Part shown: piece by piece, positions 7,094 to 27,203 of the stretch
Layout of the letters: each line of letters opens with the position of its first letter
How positions within the stretch are numbered: position 1 is the first letter of the stretch
Source of the DNA: a virus
Taxonomy: Duplodnaviria; Caudoviricetes
IMG/VR virus record: IMGVR_UViG_3300029288_000144
Coordinates: 1 to 64,000 of that record
Direction: 5' to 3' (one strand)
Length of the DNA stretch: 64,000 nt
Translations under genes and position numbers: made by a program
The notes under the pieces: model-generated
Databases searched by the model: none
What the model was told of the DNA's origin: nothing
The model's input: only the letters and a program-made list of their open reading frames with translations

Positions 7094-7109
7094 TGAAAAA
7101 AGAAGTGAA

Positions 7110-7183
7110 CTGGGGATTCAGGGCTCGAACCTGAGACATTCTGATTAACAGTCAGACGCAACTACCTACTGTGCTAATCCCCA
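7110..7183 (-). tRNA. trnN: tRNA-Asn (GUU), CCA not encoded
   Basis: acceptor TGGGGAT/ATCCCCA with U1-A72 and discriminator G; anticodon arm CTGA-CT-GTT-AA-TCAG; T arm TCAGG-TTCGAGC-CCTGA. Confidence 0.92.
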
Positions 7184-7184
7184 A

Positions 7185-11656: not shown

Positions 11657-12092
11657 CTAACCTCAAAACATTTTCTCATCTTTTCTTTTCCAAACCTATT
11701 GACTTTCACTACAACAAACACTATATTCAGTAAACATCCAGAACATCACCCCAAGGAAACCACCTAATCTTGATACCATTTTCACATTCATTCCAAATAA
11801 TAGCCAATACGTTTCATATAATTCAAAAGAAAGAATCTAAAATGAAGTGAAAAGAAAAAGAAGAAACTATTTGAAATTAGATTGAAAGGAAAAAAGAAAA
11901 ACGATAGATGAAGAAAGAGAAAAGAAAATGAAAGGAGTGAACATGAAGTGGCGTCGTTGAAAGAAAATGAGAGAATGTTAAGAAAATAAAAAAGAAATAC
12001 ATGAAAAATAAAATAATGAAGTGAGAAGAAAAAGAAATAAAAGAAGAATAAGAAAGGAATTAAATATGCGGTAAAGATATAAGGAACTCTGG

Positions 12093-12150
12093 GAATATAG
12101 CCTATATGAGCCATATAACCAAGCTGGAGTTTCCTTCGGGCTTCAAAAGG
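12093..12150 (-). promoter_or_regulatory. variant early promoter copy 12 (-35 TTGGTT, palindromic spacer)
   Basis: GCCTTTT...CCCGAAGGAAACTCCAGC-TTGGTT-ATATGGCTCATATAGGC-TATATT. Confidence 0.7.
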
Positions 12151-12177
12151 CGCGGGTTGGGCTGACTTGAGATGGCA

Positions 12178-12226
12178 CCACCGAAGAAATATCCAGCTTG
12201 ACTTTCGGATGTTTTGGAAGTATATT
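12178..12226 (+). promoter_or_regulatory. conserved early promoter copy 13 (rightward)
   Basis: ACCGAAGAAATATCCAGC-TTGACT-N17-TATATT. Confidence 0.85.
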
Positions 12227-12659
12227 ACTCTATGAAGAAGTGTGGGATGAAATAAACGAAGATGGAAATAGATGAATAAGTTTGGAAAAATGTGGAGGAG
12301 CGTGGGTGGGAATAAATGGGAATGAAGAAAAATGAAAATGAATAGGAGGAAATGAAAAATGTAAAATAAGAAAATGAAAAATGGAAAAGTAGAGGGTAAT
12401 ACGGAGGAACCCGGATTTAGCTATATTTTTGGCATTTTTTGGTATACCGTATATTGGGGGTGTTAAATTGCTGAGATTTTTAACGACATTTTTATTTTAC
12501 ATTATATTTGATGAGTGATTTATTTTTATCTATTTCTTATTTTGTTGTTTTTGTTTATAGTGTTTAATTAGTTTAACAAAGGAGAACAGAATGAATAATT
12601 AAAGTATCTTCGTGTGTAGTTTATTTAAAAACGAAAATCAACTTAAAAAGGATAAAACA

Positions 12660-12896
12660 ATGAGATTAATGATTTTGATTATTGGACTATTTGGTAGCAT
12701 TTCTCTGGCCGAATTTTACAAACTATCAAATGTAAAACGAATTGACCAGAACCTATACAAATACGATGGTGGATATATTGCCACGAAATATTGTTATGAA
12801 TATACATATGGCGTAACGGTTATATACAACGATAACACCAGGGAAATAATTTTTGATAGTGGTAACAAATGTTCCGTTGATAAATTTTTTCAATAA
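12660..12896 (+). CDS. small secreted protein, 78 aa
   Basis: signal peptide MRLMILIIGLFGSISLA; mature part with YCYEY and C-terminal Cys. Confidence 0.75.
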   Translation: MRLMILIIGLFGSISLAEFYKLSNVKRIDQNLYKYDGGYIATKYCYEYTYGVTVIYNDNTREIIFDSGNKCSVDKFFQ

Positions 12897-12899
12897 AGT

Positions 12900-12932
12900 A
12901 TATCTACCTACGGAATTATTCTATAGGTAGAT
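12900..12932 (+). terminator. intrinsic terminator
   Basis: ATCTACCTA...TAGGTAGAT followed by TT. Confidence 0.6.
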
Positions 12933-12968
12933 TTCTGAATTTTTCATAGTGGATTTTAAGGAGACGGT

Positions 12969-13214
12969 ATGAACATTTTAATTTTGATATTTTCTATGTA
13001 TTTTTCATTTGATTATTCTTTTATGATGGAGCGTCATAGATATTTTCAAGGCAAGTCTGAGACTTATTGGTCGTTAGTTGTTGGGAAAAATTATGGTGAT
13101 TATGATATTAGCTGTAGCTTTATGAATGATAATCCTATGTTTAGTTGTAATTATACAGACAGAGTAATAGAAACAAAATCATACGAAGCGGAACTATGTA
13201 AGGAAGGTATTTGA
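12969..13214 (+). CDS. possible exported beta-rich small protein, 81 aa
   Basis: AAGGAG RBS; hydrophobic N-terminus. Confidence 0.65.
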   Translation: MNILILIFSMYFSFDYSFMMERHRYFQGKSETYWSLVVGKNYGDYDISCSFMNDNPMFSCNYTDRVIETKSYEAELCKEGI

Positions 13215-14134
13215 TGATTGTTGAAACTATTTTATTTTTAGGATTGAGTTGGATGATTGGTTTTTATGGTAGTATTGGTTATAATGTCCTAAAGAATTCA
13301 AATATTTCAAGATATGTTTATATTGGATTATCAACATTTCTGGCGTGTATTGGTTATAGTTATTATTTTCACACGCTAGAGTTTTGGAGTTTGATTCTTA
13401 CAATATGTTTAGGATATATTTCTATTATTATAAGTAGTAGGTATTCGGTTATTTTTGATAAAGAATTGTTTATTGAATACATAATAGGATATTTAAATTT
13501 TCATTATAACTATTCGACGGACAAATATTTTATTTTCAATTTTTGTGGGATTGCTCAAAATAACCAATCAAACAGGGCTTTGTGTGATAGCATAGAACGT
13601 AATTGTGTTAATAATTCATATTTTATTCCTGAAAAATCAACGCGAAAAGAATTGCTGGTTGAATTGCTCATGTTGGATTTTTTTGGAAGATTGAAATGTG
13701 TTAGTGATAAAAATAAATGTGTGAAAGATATATGTGAAGAAATAGTTTTAAAATATGTTGTGTTTCATGGAAAGAAAGGAAATGAATATAAAAATTTTCG
13801 AGAATTCGATCAACAAAGAATGAAGTATATGTTAGATGGTAATTGTATGAAAAGGACGCCGAGCGAATCGTTTAATAAGTTTGGAAAAATAAGATATAAT
13901 AAAATTGTTCAAGACTGTCACCATCTTTTACAACAGCGGTGTTTATATCTATACGACCCCACAAATTACGAATTTCATATTAGACACCAAGATGAATATG
14001 ATAATTGTTCGGATGATGAAATTGATTTTTGGAGTTGGTTTAATAAAGAGTATAAAAAATTAGGAACGGCTATTGATAAAAAAGTATTGATAGAAAAAAT
14101 GATGAATGTTGGTTTAATTGTTAAGAAAAATTAA
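13214..14134 (+). CDS. membrane protein (about 3 N-terminal TM) with soluble C-terminal domain
   Basis: hydrophobic segments in first 75 aa; TGATG coupling. Confidence 0.75.
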   Translation: MIVETILFLGLSWMIGFYGSIGYNVLKNSNISRYVYIGLSTFLACIGYSYYFHTLEFWSLILTICLGYISIIISSRYSVIFDKELFIEYIIGYLNFHYNYSTDKYFIFNFCGIAQNNQSNRALCDSIERNCVNNSYFIPEKSTRKELLVELLMLDFFGRLKCVSDKNKCVKDICEEIVLKYVVFHGKKGNEYKNFREFDQQRMKYMLDGNCMKRTPSESFNKFGKIRYNKIVQDCHHLLQQRCLYLYDPTNYEFHIRHQDEYDNCSDDEIDFWSWFNKEYKKLGTAIDKKVLIEKMMNVGLIVKKN

Positions 14135-14174
14135 GATGATGAAGATTTAAGACGATGATAAAAGGAGAAGAGAG

Positions 14175-14888
14175 ATGAAAAATACAACATCACTCGAGAA
14201 CGCTTTGAGATTTAAGATTGAGATGGGGAAGATTTACATTTCGGGGATTTTGGAGTTTAGCGGTGGCGAATATATTGTTCTCGATAATTGTGTTTATAAG
14301 GTATCTGAGATAGATTGGAGAAACGGAATTTTGTTATTTAATGTTGGTGGGATTATTGATGTTCGGTGTCATTTGTATTCATGGGAGGATGTTGAAAAGG
14401 ATATTGGTGAGATTTCTGTTATGAACAAGATGCTGTATATTGCTGATTGTTTGAATTATGATGATTTGAAATCTAATTTGAAATTGAAGCATTTTGTTTT
14501 AGATTCTTTGTTTAGGGATATTGTTTTTTCTGAAATTTTTGGGAATCATGTTAGGAGTGTTTCAAGAGATTGTGTTGTTATTAAGAGTGTGACTGGAAAG
14601 GACTTAGAGATTTATTTAGATTCTGTTTGTATGAGAAATATGGGAGAGGTTGAAGAGAAGATTTTGTTTGGTTGTGATAAAGAATGTGTGATGGCGAAAG
14701 TTAAAGAAATGTGGAATAGAAGATTTGAAAAATTTAATAAATGGAGAATGATTGGTAAAGATTATATATGTCCTTGGCTTGCTGGAGGAATTTATAGTTA
14801 TGATATTTTAACCGATGAGATTTTTGTATTCTTACACCCAAATAAAAATAGATTCAAAAGATATTGGAAGATTTTTCGTGAAGATTGA
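14175..14888 (+). CDS. hypothetical protein, 237 aa
   Basis: AAGGAG RBS. Confidence 0.8.
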   Translation: MKNTTSLENALRFKIEMGKIYISGILEFSGGEYIVLDNCVYKVSEIDWRNGILLFNVGGIIDVRCHLYSWEDVEKDIGEISVMNKMLYIADCLNYDDLKSNLKLKHFVLDSLFRDIVFSEIFGNHVRSVSRDCVVIKSVTGKDLEIYLDSVCMRNMGEVEEKILFGCDKECVMAKVKEMWNRRFEKFNKWRMIGKDYICPWLAGGIYSYDILTDEIFVFLHPNKNRFKRYWKIFRED

Positions 14889-16051
14889 ACTTAATGTACT
14901 AACTTACAGCGTTTACTTTCATTGTTGTTTTGTGCTGAAATATAAAGGACAATACGAACTAATTATCAGCATTTATCATATTGATAAAAAACAAATAGAC
15001 ATTGGACATCGCACCAACAAAAGAAGAATGGAAAAGTTTAAATGAAAATCAATTTAGAAATAAGAAAATCCGGACTATTTGAACCTGTAAGAACTGCGTG
15101 GTTTTACAGAACTATTATACTCGTTGAATATATTTGGAAAGATAGAATAGAAACTGTTGGTGCTAAATGTAATCCGAAAAGACTTACAAAGATTGTTAAT
15201 CGCTGGAATGACAACGGAAATGAAAAATTATGAAAATAGAATTATTTTGCGAACATTATTTGGGGGCAAGAGAATACTGTCTCTTTAGAAAATACAAAAA
15301 AGAGAACAAGTTAATTGATAGAATATACTGGTACGAAAAATATAATTTTAATGAAGACCGAGTTGTATTTGAACTAGTTAATCAAAAAAGATTCGGAAAA
15401 TATGGCAAAGTAATGGTTATAAAATGAAGATTAGAGCGTATTTCACATATAACAACTCCCCTTCACAAGCCTTAATGGTTAGAAAGTATAAAAACGATAC
15501 GCATATACATGACCGAATTATGTATGGGTTTTTTCTACTTGATTTCAATTGTTATGATTATTCGGTTTATGGAAATGTTTGTTTGAGAAGATTTAGGAAA
15601 TTTCAAAAAAATTGCGAGAAAATAAAATGGAAATAAAAACATTCATTTGGAATAAGAATGTAATAGGGCAAGTTGATTTTTACATTTGTCGTAGAGTCTA
15701 TGATATTGGTTCGGTCTATTATATTACCAATAAAGATGAAATGGTTACATATTACAAAAATAACAAAGGTGTTGGTTATTTGAATAAGAATGTTAGTGGT
15801 AGATTGATTAAAAGATTCGAGAGTACCTTTGTATGAAAATTAAAGCAACAGTACAAGTAAACATCAGTCGTTTTGTTTTTGAAACTGATAGACTCTGGTT
15901 TGAATGGTTCTACTATGTTCGCGACAAACCAGATTATGAATTGTGTGTTTTATATTTCTTTGATTCCGGCACCATCCAAACAGCATTGAAAAGATTAGAA
16001 AATTCAAAAATTATCAAAGTTCATCATTGGGAATATGCGGCGGATAGTTAG
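14878..16051 (+). CDS. MKI micro-protein array block 1a: six ORFs (14878-15045, 15042-15233, 15230-15427, 15424-15636, 15627-15836, 15833-16051)
   Basis: 55-72 aa each; starts MKI/MEI; R(F/L/M)xK near C-terminus; ATGA overlaps. Confidence 0.75.
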
Positions 16052-16071
16052 ATTATTTTTCTAAAAACGTG

Positions 16072-16100
16072 TTGCCTTGTGAAAAATAAAAGAGTATATT
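16072..16100 (+). promoter_or_regulatory. TTGCCT-class promoter
   Basis: TTGCCT-TGTGAAAAATAAAAGAG-TATATT, near-identical to 33928-33956. Confidence 0.7.
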
Positions 16101-16134
16101 AAATAATGCGGAAATTCAATAGTTATTGGAAAGT

Positions 16135-16311
16135 TTGAAAACGTATGTATATCTGGTTCGGAAAAATAGTTGGGACTCCGATGCTGATGAAATAAAAGCG
16201 GCGTATCTTGATTATGATTTGTTGATGAATGAAACAAAATGGTAGCGAGAACATAAAGAAGGATATATAAGAACCGCTTGGTATGTTGAAAAAATTGAGG
16301 TTAATAAATGA
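16135..16311 (+). pseudogene. small phage protein interrupted by in-frame TAG
   Basis: TTG start; KTYVYLVRKNSWDSDADEIKAAYLDYDLLMNETKW*REHKEGYIRTAWYVEKIEVNK; TAG at 16243-16245; ends in ATGA overlap with next gene. Confidence 0.55.
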
Positions 16312-17459
16312 AAATAAATCTATATGTAAAAGATTATGGTGGTGGTGTTGTTTTTTCTCAAAAGCCATGGGGAATTAAAATGAGGATAATATTACAGGCA
16401 TATTATGAGGGTCGTTATTGTTCAGATTATATCAACGCAAATACAAAACGACTAAAGATAGATAGGTTTACGTGAAAATAAAAATATTTGTTGCTGATTA
16501 CAAAAAATGTGTAGCTGCGGCTCATATTAGAAGAGAAAATGAATATTTAGTTTTCGGAAATGTAGATTATAATTCAATTTACATTGTTGTGTTTCAAAAA
16601 CCAAAAGAATACTGGATTTCAAATAAGACAAATGTAGACAGATTTAAAAAAATATATGATTGTGTGAACACCAATGAAAATACAATTAACCGTTGATAAT
16701 GGGATATATAACCAAACCGATTTTGTTAGATTCCACACTAAAGAATCTAAACATTGTTTTTGTTCACATACGTTATATGAAATGTTCTTCACGTCTTTAC
16801 TACCATTTAACAAATCCGTCAGAAATCTTAAAAAAGACCGATTTCAAAAAATAGGAGTAAAACTGTGAAAATATCGTTATATGTTTATGATGATGACCAA
16901 TATACTTATGCTCATTTTTCAAAATCCAAATTATATCCAAAAATTGATAACTATGCGGACTTTATAGTTGCGTTTTGTGATTATCCGTGTCTAAGCTTAT
17001 GTAATGTTGAAAGATTCAAGAAAATTTATCCAACAGCAGAACTCTACGAGGATTAAATATGAAAATCTATCTTACATTTGATAATACCAAATTATACAAA
17101 AACTCTGTTCGTTTACATGCTAACAAAGTATTAAATTATTCGTATGGTCTTGGATACAACGAGGCTTTGGGTTTTATTGGTTATTTGGGTGATTATGTTT
17201 GTGTGTCTAATTGCGGAAGAAAATTAAATGTTACAAGGTTAAATAAACTAAAATGAAACTATCAACATATTTAATAACCGACGATGGTAATATACACTTA
17301 GCTAGAGATAAAAAAGAAACGCTTAATTATGGCGAAACGGAAAGTAACAATAGGTATTTCATAGTTGTTTTTATGGAATTTAATGAATTTTGGATTTCTA
17401 AACTGTGTAAGGTTCCTCGTTTTATGAAGTGGTTTACGGGACACAATTATAACGACTGA
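16308..17459 (+). CDS. MKI micro-protein array block 1b: six ORFs (16308-16475, 16472-16696, 16674-16868, 16865-17056, 17059-17256, 17253-17459)
   Basis: 55-74 aa; MKI/MKL starts; KRLK/DRFKK/DRFQK/ERFKK/TRLNK/PRFMK near C-termini; ATGA/GTGA overlaps. Confidence 0.75.
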
Positions 17460-17616
17460 AAATAAATTTATTTCTTAAAGATTGTTGTTTTTCTCATTAT
17501 AAGACAGGAACCAATATGTTTATAATACATATGTTGACCTCCATCAGTAGAATCCCAGCATACTCGCCGTATATAGAGACATTAAACGTAAGAAGAATCA
17601 AGAAAATTCAAAAGGA

Positions 17617-18621
17617 GTGGAAATCATGAACAGATGTATTTTGATGCGTGGATATCCTGGTTGTGGAAAATCTACAAGAGCCAAAGAACTATCAGATGAG
17701 TTTGGAAACTGTTCAATCGTATCGGCTGATAACTATTGGATTGATTCAAACGGTTTTTACAAATTTGATGTTTCTAAATTAAAATTAGCCCACGAATATT
17801 GTTACAATGAGTTTAAGAAAGCCATTGCTGCAGGACGAAATGTGATTGTTGACAATACGAATCTCAAATTTGAAGATTGTAAGAAATATTTCGATTATAT
17901 TTTGAAGAACAATAATGTAGGAACTCATCGTTACGCAATCGATATTTGTGAAGTTTCTTACAACGATTTAGATACAGCGATTTCTCTTAGAAGCAATCGC
18001 GAAGATGGAAAGAATATTCCATCTGAAAAGATTCGCGGAATGTATGATATCTTCCGGAAAATCAATTGTGTTTCGTTGATGCTTTCGAATTACACCAACA
18101 AGATTGATTTTGTTTTTCCGAAAGATGTAGTAGAATATAATTGGTTAGAGAATTCTTCAACAGATAAAACCAAAAAAGATTGTGTGATTTGTGACCTTGA
18201 TGGAACTCTATCTATTTTCAAACTTGCGGATGGCACGCTGTTACGAAATGCTTTTGATGCTTCTACTTGCGAATCGGATTTGATAAACGTTGCTGTAGCT
18301 AAAGCTATTTCAGCATTTGAGCTTGTAGGAAACGAAATCATTTTTCTTTCTGGAAGAGAGAACAAATACAGAAAAGAAACCGAAGCATTTTTGAATAGAG
18401 TTTCGGAAAAATATGGATTGAATAAAAATCACAAACTATACATGAGAGCTGCTGGAGATTTTCGTTCTGATGATATTGTAAAATCTGAAATCTTTTCAAA
18501 CAACATCAAAGACAAATATAATGTAGTTTGTGTTTTTGATGACCGACCAAAAGTTGTTCGTCTGTGGCGTTCTTTGGGGTTGTTTGTTTTTGATTGTAAT
18601 TACCGTGGAGAGGAATTCTAA
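17617..18621 (+). CDS. pseT: polynucleotide 5'-kinase / 3'-phosphatase (T4 PseT-like)
   Basis: P-loop GYPGCGKST in N-terminal kinase; HAD motifs DLDGT, LSGR, FDDRPKV in C-terminal domain. Confidence 0.9.
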   Translation: MEIMNRCILMRGYPGCGKSTRAKELSDEFGNCSIVSADNYWIDSNGFYKFDVSKLKLAHEYCYNEFKKAIAAGRNVIVDNTNLKFEDCKKYFDYILKNNNVGTHRYAIDICEVSYNDLDTAISLRSNREDGKNIPSEKIRGMYDIFRKINCVSLMLSNYTNKIDFVFPKDVVEYNWLENSSTDKTKKDCVICDLDGTLSIFKLADGTLLRNAFDASTCESDLINVAVAKAISAFELVGNEIIFLSGRENKYRKETEAFLNRVSEKYGLNKNHKLYMRAAGDFRSDDIVKSEIFSNNIKDKYNVVCVFDDRPKVVRLWRSLGLFVFDCNYRGEEF

Positions 18622-19799
18622 TGGAAACTTTTACTCTTAGAGAATATTTGAATCAGAACTATCTTAACGACGATTCGGTTGTAGCCGATTTTCATTCCAA
18701 GTTTGGTGTGAACGTTTCTAAGTTTGAAAATTATTTCCTTTTCAAATACGACCAAATTCTCGCTAATTGGAATGACCCGATTGTAAAAGAATGTCGTGGA
18801 ACCATTCTTCAGAAAAATGAAACGTGGGAATATGTTTCTATTCCGTTTAGCAAATTCTTCAATCTACAAGAAGGACGATGCGAAATCTTTTCTTTTGTTG
18901 AATTGAAGTTGGTTGAAAAGATCGACGGTTCGTGTATTCAAGTTTGGTTTGATGGAAATAATTGGAGAGCATCTACGCTTGGGAGCATTCAAACCGCGAA
19001 TGTTTTTGATTGGCAGTTTACGTTTTCTGAGTTGTTCTGGAAAATATTCAACAACTCAGGTTTGAAAAAAGAAATGTTGATTCCTGGATATACTTACATT
19101 TTTGAACTGTGGAGCAAATACAATCAGGTTGTTACTCGTTACAGTGAAGAAAAGATTGTTTTGCTGGCTATTAGAAACAACAAGACTTTTTCTTTGACAG
19201 ATTTTTCTAATGAACAAATTCAAAAAATGTTTGGGTTTGTTCATCGTCCAATCTTTCTTGAAAACAAAGTTGGCTCTAAAGAAGAGTTGATTTCTCTGGT
19301 TGAGGAATTAGCAAAAGACGAAGTCCGTTTTGGAAAGATTCCCGAAGGTTTTGTTGGTTATGTTTCGGGAAGACCCGTGTGTAAAATCAAAAATGAGAAG
19401 TACTGTCAGACTCATAGAATTCTAACTGGAGATAAAGCATTCGTTTTGAAGAATGTGGTTGCTTCCGTTTTTTGTGGAAATGTTGATGACATCTACGGAG
19501 ATTTGACCGACGAACTAAAAGAATTCGTTGATAGATTGAAAGAAAAGATTAGACAAATTATTGACCAGTTGAACGGGGTTTCATATCAATTATTTTTGAT
19601 GGATAACAAATTCAATGCGAAAGAATATGCTCTCAAAGTTCAAGAATTAACAAATAACGAACTGTTAATGTTTCGTGGATTTCTGTTTGATAAGAAAAAA
19701 GAAATATGTGAAACAGGAAACATGCGAGATTTGTTTCTTCCGTGGATTGTTAATGGAAACAGATACGAAAAGAATTTGGATTTTTGGAGAAATGTATGA
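18621..19799 (+). CDS. rnlA: RNA ligase 1 (T4 RnlA-like)
   Basis: ECRGTIL, PFSKFFN, motif I EKIDGS, YIFEL, PEGFV, KIKNEKY. Confidence 0.85.
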   Translation: METFTLREYLNQNYLNDDSVVADFHSKFGVNVSKFENYFLFKYDQILANWNDPIVKECRGTILQKNETWEYVSIPFSKFFNLQEGRCEIFSFVELKLVEKIDGSCIQVWFDGNNWRASTLGSIQTANVFDWQFTFSELFWKIFNNSGLKKEMLIPGYTYIFELWSKYNQVVTRYSEEKIVLLAIRNNKTFSLTDFSNEQIQKMFGFVHRPIFLENKVGSKEELISLVEELAKDEVRFGKIPEGFVGYVSGRPVCKIKNEKYCQTHRILTGDKAFVLKNVVASVFCGNVDDIYGDLTDELKEFVDRLKEKIRQIIDQLNGVSYQLFLMDNKFNAKEYALKVQELTNNELLMFRGFLFDKKKEICETGNMRDLFLPWIVNGNRYEKNLDFWRNV

Positions 19800-20431
19800 A
19801 TGAAGTAAAATACCCAAGAACATATCACCTTCCTTATTCTCCCGGAAGCACTAATGATGATAAAAAGTTTCCAAACGATTCTCACCTAATCGAAAAAGAA
19901 ATTGTTCTAACTTTAAAATTAGATGGCGAAAATTGTTCGTTGACCAAAAATAAAATTTGGGCTAGGAGCTTAGATTCTCAAAACCACCCAAGTAGAAATT
20001 GGGTCAAGAATTTTTGGGAAAACATTCGTTATGATATTCCGGATGATTTAAGAATTTGCGGCGAAAATTTATACGCAAAGCATTCAATCTATTATGATGA
20101 ACTACCAAGTTATTTCATATGTTTTAATATTTGGCGCGGCGATGAATGTTTAAGCTGGAAAGAAACAGAAGAATGGTGCAGTTTGATAGGATTAGAAATA
20201 GTTCCGGTTGTTTATCGCGGAATCTATTCAAAAGAGATAATATTAAAAGAAGCTACGAGTTCTGAGAAAATATTTGGCGGCGAACGCGAAGGAATTGTCG
20301 GAAGAAATCCTGAAAGTTTCAACTACGAAAATTTCAAAGAAAATACATTTAAATGGGTTAGAAAAGGACATGTCCAAACAACTCAACACTGGATGTATGA
20401 CAAAATCATTCCCAACAAGTTGAAAATATGA
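19784..20431 (+). CDS. second ATP-dependent RNA ligase (Rnl2-family-like nucleotidyltransferase); start probably 19796
   Basis: KYPRTYHLPYSPG, KLDGEN, ICGENLYAKHSIYY, EREGIV, KWVRKGHVQT. Confidence 0.85.
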   Translation: MEKCMNEVKYPRTYHLPYSPGSTNDDKKFPNDSHLIEKEIVLTLKLDGENCSLTKNKIWARSLDSQNHPSRNWVKNFWENIRYDIPDDLRICGENLYAKHSIYYDELPSYFICFNIWRGDECLSWKETEEWCSLIGLEIVPVVYRGIYSKEIILKEATSSEKIFGGEREGIVGRNPESFNYENFKENTFKWVRKGHVQTTQHWMYDKIIPNKLKI

Positions 20432-20742
20432 AAATACATCTGAAAGTTGAAGTATCAAAATATGTAGGAAAACGAAGAGTGTATAATCATTTTTTAGATT
20501 TAGGAGATTTTGAAATAGTTTACGTCTTTGAAACCGATGACTATTTTGAAGATACTGTATCTGATTATATTTCAAACTGGAAAAGATTAGAAATAAGTAA
20601 AACAAAACCAAAAATTGTTACGTGGATAACTCCTTTCACAAATGAGGTGTTCACAAGTTTCAATTCAACTGATGACAACAACGATTACATTACAACATAT
20701 ATGGAAGATAACAAAAGAATGATGAAATGGAAAACAAGATGA
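20428..20742 (+). CDS. MKI-family protein (long variant), 104 aa
   Basis: MKIHLKV start, KRMMK end, ATGA overlap. Confidence 0.7.
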   Translation: MKIHLKVEVSKYVGKRRVYNHFLDLGDFEIVYVFETDDYFEDTVSDYISNWKRLEISKTKPKIVTWITPFTNEVFTSFNSTDDNNDYITTYMEDNKRMMKWKTR

Positions 20743-20937
20743 AAACACTTAGGGGTTAACAACATTTTTCTAACATCTCGCAGAAGGGTGCTGTTACCTA
20801 TTTTTCCAACGTTTTAACGAACAGTAATAGATAAAGACATATTGTATTTCTTTAATGTTTAAGATATGTTAAAGTCCGATAGAATATGGGTTTGAAGAAC
20901 AAAAATTAAGTTAAAAATGATAACAAATATGTCGTAA
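20739..20937 (+). pseudogene. decayed MKI-family gene
   Basis: ATGA-coupled ATG AAA stops after 6 codons; shifted frame reads KHLGVNNIFL...RTKIKLK with three internal stops. Confidence 0.45.
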
Positions 20938-21021
20938 AAATCTAAACATTGTTGAAATAGAAAGAACTGCTTGAAATATTTTTGCGACAGATTAAAATAG
21001 AAGAAGAAAGAATAAAGCGAC

Positions 21022-21393
21022 ATGAAAATAACTTTGAAATATAATGGAATGTTTGGAACGTGGAATAGAATTTTAAAACAAGATAACCCCGATTCTTTAA
21101 TTTTTCAGTCTGGATATAAACACTCAGACTTGATGGCATGGAATCGTATAAACAGACCTTTTGCTAAACGTTTTATAAAATGGCTGTGAGATATGAAATG
21201 CGAATTAAAATTAGATAAAACCTCGTGGAGTTTTTCGCCAAAATACAATACCAAAAACGGAAATGGAATATCCGTTGGTTTTATTTCCGGCAATCCATAC
21301 GCATATTGGAGCAATCAAAATTCTCCATTCGCAATTCTAAAACGATTAAAGATAAAATACGAGTACAAAGGAATAATATGCCATACAAACTAA
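21022..21393 (+). CDS. two MKI-family ORFs (21022-21189, 21193-21393)
   Basis: MKITLKY...KRFIKWL; MKCELKL...KRLKI. Confidence 0.7.
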
Positions 21394-21680
21394 AACATAG
21401 AGAAACGGGATTGTATTGGAAAGGCTCGTCTCAAAAGCCTCTTGAAAAAGGGGAGATGAATAAATTGTGCTGGAGCAAGAACGGGAAGTCTTGGAATCAA
21501 AAAGGTCATTTAAGTTCTGCTTTAACAAATGTGCTTCGGCCAGAATATATTAGAGGAACTAGTTTCGAAGATTATTCCAAGAGTGAAGTATTGTATGGTT
21601 GGTTTGAAGAAAACTGCGTTGTTGAATATTATGAAACTCCAAAAGAAATCAATTTCTCAGATTTTAAGAAATTGGATTGA
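21378..21680 (+). CDS. hypothetical phage protein, 100 aa (MPYKLKHRETGLYW...)
   Basis: AAGGA RBS; YKLKH.ETGLYW...WSKNGKSW...GHL pattern typical of small phage proteins. Confidence 0.7.
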   Translation: MPYKLKHRETGLYWKGSSQKPLEKGEMNKLCWSKNGKSWNQKGHLSSALTNVLRPEYIRGTSFEDYSKSEVLYGWFEENCVVEYYETPKEINFSDFKKLD

Positions 21681-21681
21681 T

Positions 21682-22854
21682 ATGAAAATTAAACTTTGGG
21701 TTGTGGACCGAAATAGATATCACAACATTCATTTTGGAACCGATATGTATTATTCGGCAGGATATTACGATTATTTAGATTTTGGTGGAGTTTTTGTTTT
21801 CAACCCTAAGAAATATGAAAATTTACTATATAGGCTAGACAAATATTTTCCCGAAAGTAATATTAAAAAATATGAAAATTTACTTAAAAATAAGTAGACG
21901 ATATCATGAAACCGCTTTTATTTTCAACAAGAGAATAAATCTTTCAAAACATTTGACCGTAATTTATGATTCGGTTGGAAAAGTTTTCGCTTCAAATTTA
22001 TCAAACTACAAAAATTACAAAAGAAGGTTGAAACTTAAATGAAAATATTATTAAAAGTAAATAAAGAATATTCAGAATATGAATTTGTATTGTATCGTAA
22101 ATATACAAAACGAAAACCAAAATTTATTATTCGCTATTTTGCTAACGAAATAGAAAATCTTCATCTTATGATACCTTACGACAAATACAACATCTACAAA
22201 AACAGATACAGAAATATAGAAAGAAGATTAAATTTGGAGATTCATAAAGTATGAAGTTACTAATTCGATTTGAAAACCGTTATTCCGATCCTTATTGTTG
22301 TTGGTGCCGATGCTGGTTTTTGTTTGATAGAAGAATAATACGTTCGGATTTGGCGCAAAACCCAATCAGAATTCTTACCACCCAACAATACAATGGAGAA
22401 AAAATTAAAAAATATACAAACAAAAGGATTCGGTTATGAAGATAAAATTGCGGTGTTTGGGTAATTTGCGTGGTTACTCGTTCGCTCTATATAACCAAGA
22501 AAGAGTCGTATTACAATATTTTGCGTCCAAATTAAAACCAATATATTTGGTTTATGTCATGTCACAACGTCACAAAAAAGAGATAAAACACGCTGCATTT
22601 CTCCGTCGAATGAAAACAACAATCCAATCACAATTATAAAAATAACATTTAGAATATTTTTAAACAACGAGAATAACTTTTTGTATTTTAATTTTGGAAA
22701 GAGTTATGATAGATCGAATGTTGTATTCCTTCCATATCCCGAATTAAACCAAAAATCTTGTAACCTGAACGGAATTAACGATTTGGATTTTACGAAAACA
22801 AAAAGCCGCTACATTAGGTTATGTAAGCGGCTTAAGATAAAAATAATTGATTGA
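21682..22854 (+). CDS. MKI array block 2: six ORFs (21682-21897, 21872-22042, 22039-22254, 22251-22439, 22436-22639, 22636-22854 with ATA start)
   Basis: 56-72 aa; MKI/MKL starts; RRL/KRI/RRM/KRL ends; ATGA overlaps, last junction ATAA. Confidence 0.7.
22803..22833. terminator. hairpin at convergence of plus and minus operons
   Basis: AAGCCGCT-ACAT-TAGGTT-ATGT-A-AGCGGCTT. Confidence 0.6.
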
Positions 22855-22863
22855 ATTGATATT

Positions 22864-23283
22864 TTATCTAACCGGAACTATCAATTCTTTATCAACTGCC
22901 TGTTTATACTCTTTACTATCTTTTTTCAAATTAAACAAATCGATAAACGATAATTTTTCTTTACCTGGTTTTCTCAATTGAGCGATGTCTAAACCAAGTA
23001 ACGAATCTATTTTCTTTCTATAAGCTCGGTAATTTGCGTCTGGTTCGGCAGATGCGCTCGGTTTCCATCGTTTCATTACTTCTTTCTGATGAGGTTCTTG
23101 TTTCGTAGTGTCATCAATTGCTAAGAAAAATGCCAATTTGATTTCGTCAAGAGTGTATTTAGTCAAATCAATTCCTACTTTCTCCAAATCTTTCATAGTT
23201 TTTTCAATAGCATCAAAATTGATAACATCTGTCCGACGAGCCATCTCATTTAATTCTGTATCAACCCATTCACGCAAGTTCAT
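22864..23283 (-). CDS. putative internal head protein, type A copy 2
   Basis: MNLREWVDTELNE N-terminus (CTS-like); paralog of 23564-24043. Confidence 0.75.
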   Translation of the reverse strand: MNLREWVDTELNEMARRTDVINFDAIEKTMKDLEKVGIDLTKYTLDEIKLAFFLAIDDTTKQEPHQKEVMKRWKPSASAEPDANYRAYRKKIDSLLGLDIAQLRKPGKEKLSFIDLFNLKKDSKEYKQAVDKELIVPVR

Positions 23284-23567
23284 TTGTATCTCCAAAATTT
23301 ATAAGGAATGTTATAATCAACCAAAGCATTTCTCTTGTCATTTGTGTGTAATGTCCATTTAGATACGTTTAGTGTTCTTGCTGCTTGTGATGCATCACCT
23401 TCCGCAGAATTAAGATGAACAATATACGCTAAAACTTTTGCCCCATCTTCAAACAGATTATCAAGATTTATATTCTTATGTTTCAAAGCCGCCGCCAAAT
23501 CAAATGTTTTTGTGACATCAACAACCGCTTCATTTAATTGCTGTTCTGTATATTCTTTGAAATTCAT
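23280..23567 (-). CDS. putative internal head protein with Fis-type HTH, type B copy 2
   Basis: MNFKEYTEQQLNE; GDASQAARTLNVSKWTLH. Confidence 0.75.
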   Translation of the reverse strand: MNFKEYTEQQLNEAVVDVTKTFDLAAALKHKNINLDNLFEDGAKVLAYIVHLNSAEGDASQAARTLNVSKWTLHTNDKRNALVDYNIPYKFWRYK

Positions 23568-24043
23568 TCTTCTTCTCCAGCCATTTTGACACGACCTTGT
23601 TTCTGTTCTTTTTCAAACTTTGTTCCTGGCTGGATTCCTTTTAGAGATGAGAACGAAGTGTTAACTCTATGCGGACGTTCTCCAGCAATTGGATTAGGAA
23701 CCAAAATCTTGTTAATTTCTTCGACATTCAATTTCAGAAGTTTCATCAACTTGTCTCTGTAAGCACGATAGTTAGCATCCGGTTCCGATTTAGAGCTTGG
23801 TTTCCAATACTTCATAACTTCGGCTTGATGTTTTGGAGACTCCCCACGGACAATTTCATCAAGATAGAAAAAGAAAGCGGATGTAATTTCATCAAAAGAA
23901 TATTTACTCAAATCAATTCCTGCGGATTCAAGTTCGCTCATTGTCTTTTTAATGGCGTCCAAATCAACTAAATCTTTTCTAAGAGCCATTTCATTCAGCA
24001 TCTTCTCTTCAACTTCTTTATCAATTAGTTTTACCAAATTCAT
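23564..24043 (-). CDS. putative internal head protein, type A copy 1
   Basis: KMLNE site; shares GIDLSKY, HQ.EVMK.WKPS..SEPDANYRAYR with 22864-23283. Confidence 0.75.
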   Translation of the reverse strand: MNLVKLIDKEVEEKMLNEMALRKDLVDLDAIKKTMSELESAGIDLSKYSFDEITSAFFFYLDEIVRGESPKHQAEVMKYWKPSSKSEPDANYRAYRDKLMKLLKLNVEEINKILVPNPIAGERPHRVNTSFSSLKGIQPGTKFEKEQKQGRVKMAGEEE

Positions 24044-24339
24044 TCTTTAATCCTCCACAACTCTTCTGGAATTTCAAGAGCAACCAACGGATTCTTCTTT
24101 GGGTCTTTAGAATGAAGAGTAGCTCTATCTTTTCCTAACGAATCTGCGGCTTTTGCTAAATTTCCTTCAAACGCTTTGATGTGCGAAAGATACGCTAAAA
24201 CTTTTACACTATCTTCGCTCAAACGCTTTGACAATTTAGCTTCAACTAATTTGTCTCTTAATCCTAAAGCCTTGTTAACATTGATGGTTGCTTCTGATAA
24301 AACACCAATTTCTTTTTCAATAAACTCTTTTAAGTCCAT
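24040..24339 (-). CDS. putative internal head protein with Fis-type HTH, type B copy 1
   Basis: MDLKEFIEKEIGVLSE; GNLAKAADSLGKDRATLH; GAGG RBS; TAAATAG late promoter at 24357-24362. Confidence 0.75.
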   Translation of the reverse strand: MDLKEFIEKEIGVLSEATINVNKALGLRDKLVEAKLSKRLSEDSVKVLAYLSHIKAFEGNLAKAADSLGKDRATLHSKDPKKNPLVALEIPEELWRIKE

Positions 24340-24375
24340 AATAACCTCTTTAGAACTATTTAGGAACAAAATCAA

Positions 24376-24573
24376 ATGAAAATAAATATGACAGTTGAAA
24401 AAGAACAGGAAAATTATTGGATTGTTAGATTTTTTTTGCCCATCATCCAATCAGATAGAACTTGTTTAGTTGGGCAATGGTTTCCAAGAGAAGTTGGTTA
24501 TTTTATTCCCAAAATTGGCCGATACATATTTACAAAGTCAGCTAAAGACATGAGAATTTCCAATCATAAATAG
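24376..24573 (+). CDS. solitary MKI-family ORF, 65 aa
   Basis: MKINMTV start; lies between two divergent late promoters. Confidence 0.6.
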   Translation: MKINMTVEKEQENYWIVRFFLPIIQSDRTCLVGQWFPREVGYFIPKIGRYIFTKSAKDMRISNHK

Positions 24574-24594
24574 TTCTAAAAGAGGTTAACTACT

Positions 24595-25437
24595 ATGGGA
24601 TTTAAGGATTGGTTAAATGAAGAAGTTGATGTTGCTTCTGCTCTAAAAGAGAAGGCTGAAAAAGGTCTAAACATCAAGACTAAGTTCGGAACATTCAAGT
24701 TTGACAAGATGGACAAGAAGAAGTATGTCTTTGTTCTTGATGGAGATGATAAAGACATTTCTGTTGTTGTTGCCGAAAAACCCAATGAGAAATATCTTGA
24801 CCTAACAATTTCTGTTTTCAAAAAGGATTCGCTTGTCGGAAAACGCAAATCTGCTCCGGATGACGATTCCGAAACACAATATCTAAAAACAGATATTACT
24901 CGTAAGGCTGCAAAAGATATTAAGAAAGCTGTTGAAGAAATTCTCGGTTCACTTAATGAAGATGAACTAATCACGCTCGATGAAGATTTTGGAGCAACCG
25001 CACTTGCCGCAGCTCTAATTCCCCTTGTCATTGGTTCTATTCCAGTTCTGAACAAAGCAGCTCACGAATATAATTGGTTCGGAATTGCTAATGAAAAAGA
25101 ATCTAAAATCAAAACTATCGATGACATTAAAGAAAAGATTCAGAAGTTCTCACTCAAACAGATTCAAGAAATTCTAAAAGACGAAAAGAAAGCAGATGCG
25201 ATTGTTGATGAGCTTTTAGATACAATTAAGAAAGAATCTCCAAGGTTTATTGTTAATCCTAGAACCAAGGCAGAAATCTATGACCAAGTTCTTTTCTATC
25301 TTAGGAGAAGTGCAGAAGCTAAGAGCAAAGAACCCGTTGCTAAAGGAATGACTCCTGTAAAAGATGCCGCGAAAGATGCTCTCGCTCGGTCGTCTGGTTA
25401 CAAGAAAGGCGGCGTTTGGTTCGGAACTCAAAATTAA
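24595..25437 (+). CDS. putative internal head (poly)protein, 280 aa
   Basis: ATAAATAGTT late promoter at about 24566-24575; GAGG RBS; MGFKDWLNE and internal SLNE/TLDE sites. Confidence 0.75.
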   Translation: MGFKDWLNEEVDVASALKEKAEKGLNIKTKFGTFKFDKMDKKKYVFVLDGDDKDISVVVAEKPNEKYLDLTISVFKKDSLVGKRKSAPDDDSETQYLKTDITRKAAKDIKKAVEEILGSLNEDELITLDEDFGATALAAALIPLVIGSIPVLNKAAHEYNWFGIANEKESKIKTIDDIKEKIQKFSLKQIQEILKDEKKADAIVDELLDTIKKESPRFIVNPRTKAEIYDQVLFYLRRSAEAKSKEPVAKGMTPVKDAAKDALARSSGYKKGGVWFGTQN

Positions 25438-25455
25438 GTTAGGCAAAAACATCTA

Positions 25456-25498
25456 TTGACAATGAAGCCTTCCGGTGGTATATTCAATCGGAAGGCTT
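25456..25498 (+). promoter_or_regulatory. sigma70-like promoter overlapping a terminator hairpin
   Basis: TTGACA-N17-TATATT; 10 bp stem AAGCCTTCCG/CGGAAGGCTT followed by T tract. Confidence 0.7.
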
Positions 25499-25620
25499 TC
25501 TTTTAGACTCTCTTTGGAATAAATCATTGAAATATTGAACAACTGAAAAATTAGAAAGATTTATTAGGACTGGACATTTAAGCCACGATAAAATAAAGGT
25601 AACCAAGAGAGGTGGCACAT

Positions 25621-26034
25621 ATGAAGTTAAACACAGAGTATTCAGGAACAATTGCAAAGCATTCGTCGGCAACAAGAACCATTGTCAATTCCGACCCAAA
25701 GGAAGTGGTTCGCGTTTCGCAGATTAAGGTAAAGATTGATTATCAGCCGGGAATGCTTGATGATATTCTTGTTGGAGATGACCAAACAATTGCAGATGCT
25801 AATACTTACAAAACTTGTTCGTGGGACCAGCGAGTCGGAAGTTATGAATTAGAAATTAACGAAACGGCTCTTTGTGTTGTCATTAACAAGATTGACAGAA
25901 AGAATAAAGACGAAATGACCCAGGAATTGTATATTACCTTTGAAACAGCGGATGTTGAAAAGGCAGGATTCGTTGGGCATTATCTTCGTGACAAAGACAA
26001 TCCAGCAAAACTTACTCTCAAAAATCTGGAATGA
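25621..26034 (+). CDS. hypothetical protein, 137 aa
   Basis: GAGGT RBS. Confidence 0.75.
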   Translation: MKLNTEYSGTIAKHSSATRTIVNSDPKEVVRVSQIKVKIDYQPGMLDDILVGDDQTIADANTYKTCSWDQRVGSYELEINETALCVVINKIDRKNKDEMTQELYITFETADVEKAGFVGHYLRDKDNPAKLTLKNLE

Positions 26035-26594
26035 ACCAAAAAATAATTGATAAAACATTAGAGTTAAATCTATTCAAACCGAGCAAGAAAGTAAGCAATT
26101 ACTTTCTTGTTTATCAGGGCAATCCATTCTCTACATCGTATTATTTCACCGAATCAATCCCGTTTCATTACTTCCAACATATTTGTTTGGCGTTGACATA
26201 TTCAGAAACATTTATGGAACTGTGTGAATTCCGAGAAACAATTAAAAACTTATCATGTCCAATGGTTGTTTCAAACAAAAACAAAATCCATCTTGATAAT
26301 TTTTCTATTCTAAATTGTCAAAAAGATTGCGAGTGTGGAGCGTTCTCTCGTTTTTGGATTCGAACTAAGATTGAGAAAAATCTTATAATTTCTCATAGTT
26401 CACACTTTTCAAGAATGTTAAACGAATTGACCCCAAGTAAACAAACGTTGCTTATTAGAACCAATACATATAATAACAAATTCAAATATTTCGAATGTAG
26501 TAAACCATGTTGTTATGACTTTGAGATGAACAACTTCCAAGAAAATATTCAATTGCTTATTGAATTCACTAAACTATTCCTGGTAAAGAAATGA
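26031..26594 (+). CDS. hypothetical protein, 187 aa
   Basis: ATGA coupling on both sides. Confidence 0.7.
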   Translation: MNQKIIDKTLELNLFKPSKKVSNYFLVYQGNPFSTSYYFTESIPFHYFQHICLALTYSETFMELCEFRETIKNLSCPMVVSNKNKIHLDNFSILNCQKDCECGAFSRFWIRTKIEKNLIISHSSHFSRMLNELTPSKQTLLIRTNTYNNKFKYFECSKPCCYDFEMNNFQENIQLLIEFTKLFLVKK

Positions 26595-27203
26595 AAATAT
26601 TCTTACACATTACAGATTCTTATCAATTTGTTTTTCACAATCATCCAAAATTTAATGACCGCGATCGCCGATATTCCATAACAAATTGCCTATGGATAAC
26701 TTCCGAAGAGCTTGATTTGGAAGAAGAATTTTGGTATCTACCTAACGAAACAAATCAAAATCTGAACCACGGATATGAAACTTTCAAACGAAGAATGAAA
26801 TTGAAATGAAAATAAATTTATACATAAAAAACGATAATTTCTTTTTTGGAAAACCTTTTAGTATGCGTGAAGTTTTACGAATTGATTCCGGGGAAATTAC
26901 AGAGAATAAATTATATATTCCCAAAACATGCGACTATTATATTTCCGATGAATTAATTGAAGTGTATCATAACTTTGCTAAAAGAATGAAAATGAAAGTT
27001 CACTGATGAAAATAATATTAAAACAACATAGAGGTAATTTTTGGTTTGGAAAATCGCCCAAGCTTAATAGAGTTTTAATTGTAGACAACGGCGAAATTTC
27101 AAAAAATAGTTTTTACATTCCATATGAATCCGAATGTTTTCCAATTCTAACTTCTTACATCAAATTCACCAAAAGAATGAAACTAAAAACAAGAGGTGTC
27201 TAA
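26591..27203 (+). CDS. MKI array block 3: three ORFs (26591-26809, 26806-27006, 27006-27203)
   Basis: MKIFLH/MKINLY/MKIILK starts; RRMKLK/KRMKMK/KRMKLK ends; the last two are clearly similar. Confidence 0.75.

Follow-up and report, generated by a model that had tools for sequence, protein, structure and literature searches.

The jumbo bacteriophages G and 121Q carry tandem arrays of over 30 genes described as "very similar," which have been read as products of tandem duplication (Hua et al. 2017, PMC5646251). In T4-type phages, hyperplastic regions hold small orphan early genes that are shuffled by way of PeSL promoter/stem-loop cassettes (PMC2839356, PMC4122927), and crAss-like phages contain blocks of short genes that lack homologs beyond their lineage, for which an anti-defense role is suspected but not shown (PMC7886860). 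T4 TifA (gp61.4) is an 85-amino-acid (aa) early protein that inhibits ToxN; in its model, three strands form an N-terminal sheet, followed by a variable loop and a basic C-terminal helix that is conserved and binds RNA; a Pro-Thr cap before this helix is conserved among its homologs (PMC10853763). T4 is reported to escape toxIN through tandem amplification of the dmd-tifA locus (PMC9391042). We present here a set of 26 small genes in a 64-kb stretch of phage DNA (the window), which is the start of the 77,463-bp virus record IMGVR_UViG_3300029288_000144. On balance, we think it probable that they form a lineage-specific, birth-and-death multigene family of small, mostly basic, Tyr/Phe/Lys/Arg-rich, translationally coupled proteins.

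The source sample is a landfill metagenome. CheckV puts the completeness of the record at 32%, and a 305,169-bp metagenome contig in ENA (ERZ27247363, k141_806084) carries the window DNA, base-identical across the 20 kb compared; the phage is therefore a jumbo phage. The member count covers the 64-kb window; a further 224 kb of the genome may hold more members. All 26 members lie on the plus strand, with 13 at positions 14878 to 17629 (array 1), 9 at 20428 to 22854 (array 2), 1 at 24376, and 3 at 26591 to 27203. They are numbered in order in Table 1 and are otherwise named by start position. Most are 55 to 75 codons long, open with the pattern M-K-I-x-L-x-V, and have N-x-[KR]-R-[FLM]-x-K close to the end; several are shorter than 60 aa, and two have a CTG or ATA start. 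An earlier annotation made without database searches (the sequence-only reading) had reported tandem short MKI-type open reading frames (ORFs) in these places, and the ORF listing agrees. Its total of about 26 also holds, but its split into 12, 10, 1, and 3 does not, since the member starting at CTG 17456 is added and a 100-aa ORF at 21378 to 21680 is excluded. The array 2 copy that it described as decayed, with a TTG start at 22681, is full length when taken to start at ATA 22636, within an ATAA overlap. Member 13 (17456) reads KINLFLKD...NVRRIKKIQKEWKS and ends in N-V-R-R-I-K-K-I-Q-K.

The 26 members are real coding genes. At this base composition, random DNA is estimated to hit a stop about every 12 codons, and because the members stay open for 55 to 104 codons, their frames are maintained. 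In all 26 members, codon usage trained on the phage's long ORFs favors the annotated frame over the other five. The window has 18 ORFs of 45 to 110 aa that combine MK[ILV]x[hydrophobic] with a late [KR][FLMI]x[KR], and 17 of these are in the arrays; 60 Markov-1 simulations gave 0.35 ± 0.65 (maximum, 3). The MKI and RxxK signatures are thus far above the chance level. The strict tail motif occurs 21 times in the 78,647 six-frame residues of the contig, with 13 occurrences in members and 1 in the 237-aa ORF upstream of array 1. It lies 4 to 18 residues from the stop codon, is not tied to the gene junction, and is encoded by varied codons, and many different codons are in use at hydrophobic positions 5 and 7. 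Because the distance of the tail motif varies and positions 5 and 7 use many codons, the ends are conserved as protein sequence. The only parts that selection has kept across members are the predicted N-terminal strand (M-K-I-x-L-x-V, then h-F-x-F) and, in what is predicted to be a basic helix, the C-terminal N-x-[KR]-R-[FLM]-x-K-h.

Between these ends the members differ widely, and the mean column identity of the family alignment is about 17%. Pairwise links found by phmmer (E values for the 27-sequence set) join 26806 to 27006 (4e-12), 17253 to 16472 (3e-8), 16865 to 16472 (6e-5), 15424 to 15230 (1e-4), and, across arrays, 21682 to 16865 (2e-4); the strongest pairs are mostly adjacent genes or near neighbors. 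In leave-one-out tests with a profile hidden Markov model (HMM), which are partly circular because members were chosen by their ends, the omitted member took first place or the place beside it against about 1,200 six-frame pieces from outside the family in 18 of 25 cases. With the members from a related phage (described below) added, it came first in 15 of 26. Most members, but not all, are recovered in this way: 15627, 21022, 21193, and 22251 fail both runs, and 15424 and 22636 fail the second. The isolated member 24376 ranked 1 and 0 in the two runs. Pairwise support exists for 15424, through phmmer, and for 22251, through a reciprocal best match in the relative (E value, 4e-7). None was found for 15627, 21022, or 21193, of which 21022 has only an N-terminal likeness, seen by eye, to a member of the relative (L007 8892). 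What unites the family is a transitive chain of links plus its ends.

The related phage is represented by two contigs. L004, of 8.7 kb, was found by scanning Joint Genome Institute metagenomes with the window's T4 RnlA-type RNA ligase, Rnl1, and its Rnl1 is 64% identical. L007 is a 12.6-kb ENA contig, 99.6% identical to L004, and was found by a word search with the enlarged family alignment. The relative's layout comprises at least 12 MKI-type members, a polynucleotide kinase-phosphatase (PNK) gene, a PF09414 RNA ligase gene, Rnl1, TnpB, 6 members, and a four-gene minus-strand block. The sequence-only reading had noted that the arrays bracket the RNA-repair genes, which is true of the relative as well. 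Identity to the window in the seven nonfamily genes is 79% for PNK, 77% for the PF09414 ligase, 64% for Rnl1, and 70 to 79% for the four minus-strand genes. The best identities of the family members are 26 to 47% over partial lengths, with few reciprocal best matches. Member 14 (20428) has a positional counterpart with 32% identity over 56 aa, and the counterpart of member 20 (22251) has 37% over 51 aa. The comparison of copy number with a related phage, also suggested earlier, gives 9 members in array 2 of the window and 6 in the relative. This gap in identity and the difference in copy number indicate that change or turnover is much more rapid in the family than in any of the seven flanking genes, while the arrays stay in place.

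The two phages differ in other respects. The ligase order is swapped, from PNK-Rnl1-PF09414 in the window (18621 to 20431) to PNK-PF09414-Rnl1 in the relative (L004 4165 to 6013). A TnpB gene (OrfB_IS605/Cas12f-like) lies between Rnl1 and the second array of the relative (L004 6153 to 7406; L007 6152 to 7405) and is not present in the window. The minus-strand block, at 22864 to 24339 in the window, is well conserved in the relative, unlike the family genes that adjoin it. The relative also has a 47-aa truncated family copy and a 159-aa ORF (L004 7565 to 8044) whose first ~75 residues are family-like (MVINIQII ... ARRMKL) and whose C-terminal part is unrelated.

Comparison of L004 with L007 shows change at the strain level. 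Outside TnpB there are 15 substitutions, all in family genes and none in the 2.8 kb of PNK and ligases. Thirteen of the 15 fall in codons 14 to 70 of one member, of which 12 are nonsynonymous and 1 is synonymous; residues 1 to 13 and 54 to 69 stay the same, and the final change introduces a stop two codons early. This clustering is extreme. No donor paralog for gene conversion was found among the sequences compared, and mutagenesis of the diversity-generating retroelement type was rejected, as the changes are not adenine-specific. TnpB itself has 17 substitutions (9 nonsynonymous, 8 synonymous), 15 of them in codons 333 to 376, and these look like recombination between TnpB copies. A second landfill run yielded low-depth, near-identical fragments only, hence no ratio of nonsynonymous to synonymous rates. 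Two side observations come from the source run. One of its contigs lacks 9 nucleotides (nt) at 22065, an in-frame, three-codon indel polymorphism within member 19 (22039), and the member-to-member junction at 26774 to 26820 is matched, with 3 mismatches, by an 86-kb contig of that landfill run whose depth is similar, a hint of more members elsewhere in the genome.

The genes form head-to-tail chains. Two chains, one running from ORF 14175 through PNK and the ligases to 22854 and the other from 25621 to 27203, contain 18 overlaps of 4 nt, and a family member lies downstream in 15 of these, in line with the earlier count of at least 15 four-nt stop/start junctions. Members overlap by at least 4 nt or lie 1 to 3 nt apart, and the 8.7-kb chain is interrupted by two gaps only, of 256 and 279 nt. 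The first gap, in array 1, holds a 39-aa frame (16126 to 16245) that may be a remnant. Scans for promoters and terminators gave sites not above those in shuffled sequence, gaps included. Ribosomes would most likely pass from gene to gene by termination-reinitiation within a few long early-type transcripts. The near-cognate starts CTG 17456 and ATA 22636 are placed exactly at the 4-nt overlap with the upstream stop (CTGA and ATAA). Since the nearest counterparts of members 13 and 22 in the relative start with ATG, these starts are derived, and they would be either still in use by reinitiating ribosomes or a first step of decay.

The predicted products are enriched in K, R, Y, F, C, and H relative to the phage's large proteins, and 20 of 26 have an isoelectric point of at least 9.3; the other six are neutral or acidic. 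AlphaFold2, run with the paralogs as alignment, gave for 16472 a model of five strands and a short helix with a predicted local distance difference test score (pLDDT) of 45.7. For 26806 it gave a hairpin (residues 4 to 8 and 11 to 15), a strand (23 to 26), and a helix (48 to 60) over the conserved motif, with a pLDDT of 65.0 and a predicted template modeling score (pTM) of 0.41. The N-terminal hairpin and the C-terminal helix are the only features common to both models. A Foldseek search of PDB and BFVD found nothing below an E value of 0.3, the best Z score from VIA-align wide was 3.0, and ESM Atlas, whose own model had a pLDDT of 0.45, gave no usable match.

The sequence-only reading recognized no named family, and the searches are in accord with it. 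No member matched Pfam above the cutoff, PHROGs gave single weak matches only, PADLOC gave one match (E value, 0.006), and the best E value against PDB sequences was at least 1.7. Word-indexed searches of 5.8 billion proteins, made with family alignments A1, A2, and A3, brought up no proteins beyond those of the window itself and of L004 and L007. When 1.84 billion representatives were searched exhaustively by HMM, there were 13 matches, all the window's own. There was no match among 50,697 phage records, either by megablast of the region or by tblastn of member 16472, and scans of IMG/VR with Rnl1 and with the PNK alignment found no relative. Whole-record searches of T4, LR756508.1, 121Q, and phage G with the family profile gave nothing below an E value of 0.01. 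LR756508.1 has one place at 0.027, which contains an internal stop, and the flank of its best Rnl1 match was also empty of family members.

We picture the family as growing by repeated tandem duplication in a variable region around PNK and the two RNA ligases and as evolving by birth and death of copies together with rapid change of the protein core. The conserved ends would provide a minimal scaffold, perhaps a nucleic-acid-binding helix, and the fast-changing middle would provide specificity. The products may act early in infection on changing host targets, in take-over or counter-defense, like small early T4 proteins.

Several points weigh against this account. A role as a binder repertoire, in anti-defense, or in some other action on the host is inferred only from context and the rate at which the family evolves. 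Once the first 8 residues and the tail motif are stripped off, the cores have a mean pairwise score of 21.2 compared with 20.4 ± 0.3 when shuffled, and only the top core pairs stand out (maximum score, 83 versus 41 in shuffles); the earlier description of the family as "hyper-diverged," with little pairwise identity, is apt. ATA encodes 16 of the 23 isoleucines at codon 3, compared with 35% genome-wide, and ATG-AAA-ATA is overused. This excess fits selection for an A-rich initiation region, and some of the MKI signal may therefore act in initiation and not in the protein. The 12 nonsynonymous and 1 synonymous changes noted above are not significant against a neutral ratio of 3.3:1 (binomial estimate; P, ~0.16), and relaxed constraint would fit them as well as positive selection. 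The two members with near-cognate starts may be dying copies. A common scaffold or fold is neither shown nor excluded by the weak models; of the "fixed scaffold, variable surface" proposed earlier, the fixed ends and variable middle stand, but a shared fold finds no support in models of this confidence or in the fold searches.

The main rival explanation holds that the ends are kept largely for coupled-translation signals (an A-rich start and a purine-rich site near the upstream stop), that the cores drift almost freely, and that most copies are near-neutral by-products of duplication. Cores barely above shuffles, a substitution pattern that fits weak constraint, the overused ATG-AAA-ATA, and the low confidence of the AlphaFold and ESM models all agree with it, as do the signs of possible decay, namely, the CTG and ATA starts, the truncated copy in the relative, and the possible remnant at 16126. 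It accounts less well for 26 frames that remain open far beyond the chance spacing of stops, for codon usage that favors the right frame in every member, and for a tail motif that varies in its codons and in its distance from the stop. The arrays have also been retained in a relative in which the divergence of the flanking genes amounts to 21 to 36%. We regard this explanation as unlikely.

A specific version of our preferred reading is that the arrays are a library of TifA- or Dmd-like proteins, that is, RNA-binding inhibitors of RNase-type toxins (toxin-antitoxin RNases, anticodon nucleases, and HEPN effectors) that have diversified to match host toxins. The low-confidence 26806 model suggests a similar layout, in which a sheet and a variable middle are followed by a basic helix that is conserved; the members have high isoelectric points, and in both phages the arrays stand on either side of PNK and two RNA ligases. 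Precedent comes from the inhibition of ToxN by T4 TifA (PMC10853763) and from the reported tandem amplification of dmd-tifA (PMC9391042). Alignment by hhalign tells against it, with a probability of 0.4% over 13 columns for family alignment A2 versus T4 gp61.4 and of 0.1% for the family versus T4 Dmd. The Pro-Thr helix cap is not conserved in A1 or A2, in which the conserved block is instead N-x-[KR]-R-[FLM]-x-K. In addition, the structural models are weak, and the site beside the repair genes may merely reflect the variable region. We consider such a library rather improbable. A further extension would join the PNK and RNA ligase genes and the arrays in an "RNA-damage counter-defense island," in which repair of cut tRNA or mRNA is combined with TifA-like, RNA-assisted inhibitors, each matched to its own host RNase toxin, while tandem duplication and fast core change renew the library. 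To this we give a low probability.

The members might instead bind nucleic acids in a general way, as RNA chaperones or DNA-coating proteins do, and be produced in large amounts early in infection, with copies kept for dosage over specificity. Small chromatin- and RNA-binding proteins in general resemble such small, basic, aromatic-rich proteins, and the members combine these properties with predicted strands and a basic C-terminal helix. Selection for dosage, however, would favor similar copies, not a mean column identity as low as that found here; six members are neutral or acidic, and no match to any nucleic-acid-binding family or fold was obtained. This explanation, too, seems to us improbable.

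Far less probable is that the products are packaged in the virion and injected, with the common N-terminus as an address tag, as in the T4 internal proteins. The N-terminus is indeed common to the members, but no consistent protease-type cleavage motif follows it, the genes lie in an early-type, codirectional chain with PNK and the ligases, and none of the 5 matches to the late promoter TATAAATA in the window falls within 14 to 28 kb. Conserved ends, a variable Cys- and aromatic-rich core, and many tandem copies recall the prochlorosin-type sets of precursor peptides, but a library of precursors for ribosomally synthesized and posttranslationally modified peptides, with the ends serving recognition, is scarcely credible here, given that no modifying enzyme lies nearby, that the conserved parts are far shorter than known leaders, and that cysteine is not conserved.

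The features of the region are listed in Table 1. All genes from about 12.6 kb to 22.85 kb are on the plus strand, and the GC skew is unusually high, at +0.36 to +0.41, in positions 12001 to 16000, the start of this plus-strand block, array 1 included. Apart from the RNA-repair enzymes, the neighboring genes have no Pfam or PHROG match. The 237-aa orphan ORF at the head of array 1 (14175 to 14888) contains two family-like tail motifs, NRRFEKF and NKNRFKRYW, and may be built from fused family modules. The sole tRNA gene noted, tRNA-Asn(GUU), lies at 7109 to 7184 on the minus strand, in a phage that also encodes tRNA-repair-type enzymes. An Rfam scan of 12 to 29 kb found nothing near the gathering score.

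TABLE 1 Positions of family members, gaps, and adjoining genes in the window
Feature	Position	Strand	Remarks
Orphan ORF heading array 1	14175-14888	+	237 aa; 11-nt overlap with member 1
Member 1	14878-15045	+	55 aa; GTG start; 11-nt overlap with 237-aa ORF
Member 2	15042-15233	+	63 aa; ATGA overlap
Member 3	15230-15427	+	65 aa; ATGA overlap
Member 4	15424-15636	+	70 aa; ATGA overlap
Member 5	15627-15836	+	69 aa; N-terminus MEI; profile-weak
Member 6	15833-16051	+	72 aa; ATGA overlap
Gap, array 1	16052-16307	+	256 nt; weak sigma-70-like sites
Member 7	16308-16475	+	55 aa
Member 8	16472-16696	+	74 aa; GTG start; GTGA overlap; WISNK..NV.RF.K subfamily
Member 9	16674-16868	+	64 aa; 23-nt overlap
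Member 10	16865-17056	+	63 aa; GTG start; GTGA overlap
Member 11	17059-17256	+	65 aa
Member 12	17253-17459	+	68 aa; ATGA overlap
Member 13	17456-17629	+	57 aa; CTG start in CTGA overlap
PNK (AAA_33 + HAD_PNKP)	17626-18621	+	ATGA-coupled to member 13
T4 RnlA-type RNA ligase (PF09511; Rnl1)	18621-19799	+	
Second RNA ligase (PF09414)	19796-20431	+	
Member 14	20428-20742	+	104 aa; long form; ATGA overlap with PF09414 ligase
Noncoding gap, array 2	20743-21021	+	279 nt; weak promoter-like sites; poorly conserved in relative
Member 15	21022-21189	+	55 aa; profile-weak
Member 16	21193-21393	+	66 aa; N-terminus MKC; profile-weak
ORF within array 2	21378-21680	+	100 aa; not a family member
Member 17	21682-21897	+	71 aa
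Member 18	21872-22042	+	56 aa; 26-nt overlap
Member 19	22039-22254	+	71 aa; ATGA overlap
Member 20	22251-22439	+	62 aa; ATGA overlap
Member 21	22436-22639	+	67 aa; ATGA overlap
Member 22	22636-22854	+	72 aa; ATA start in ATAA overlap
Member 23	24376-24573	+	65 aa; isolated, after minus-strand block
Member 24	26591-26809	+	72 aa; ATGA overlap with upstream 187-aa ORF
Member 25	26806-27006	+	66 aa; ATGA overlap; best AlphaFold2 model
Member 26	27006-27203	+	65 aa; 1-nt overlap

Known factors for host take-over and anti-defense have come mainly from small phage proteins, and families such as this one, with members below 60 aa and CTG or ATA starts, escape annotation. If the members are target-specific inhibitors, the array would be a natural library in which to look for new defense systems and their inhibitors; if they are not, it documents the growth of a jumbo phage genome by duplication.

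Compared with the described systems, the locus resembles the arrays of phages G and 121Q in that many related genes stand in tandem in a phage genome of more than 200 kb, and it differs from their "very similar" genes in the divergence of its members. Profile A3 gave no match at an E value of ≤1 in KM507819 or JN638751 (phages G and 121Q), compared with 15 in the positive control on the window's own record. The sequence-only reading's phrase "strongest candidate for an undescribed system" is too strong, as tandem arrays of related small genes in jumbo phages are already in print (PMC5646251). As in the T4-type hyperplastic regions, small, codirectional orphan genes lie between conserved genes and differ in content between relatives. 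The PeSL-flanked ORFs are mostly unrelated and separated by cassettes, whereas here a single paralogous family is joined by 4-nt overlaps that leave no room for a cassette; no bounding of members by PeSL promoters and stem-loops was found, there being only the two gaps, with promoter- and terminator-like sites at the level of shuffles. The blocks of crAss-like phages are not described as a single paralogous family and belong to a different phage group.

Tandem paralogs with strain-variable copy number, linked to host range and immune evasion, are also familiar from the multigene families (MGF) 100, 110, 360, and 505 of African swine fever virus and from the "genomic accordions" of poxviruses. 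The arrays described here resemble these in being tandem and in varying in copy number, although those families belong to another virus realm, encode larger proteins, and share no homology with the members. TifA, a small early protein, would share with the members, if the weak 26806 model is right, a sheet, a variable middle, and a conserved basic C-terminal helix; it is single-copy in nature, and the hhalign comparison found no homology to it. It is the nearest functional analog that we can name, as a "works like" lead of low probability and not as a claim of membership. What is particular to this locus is the combination of fixed ends with a fast-changing core, a linkage to RNA-repair genes kept in two phages, and near-cognate starts at stop/start overlaps.

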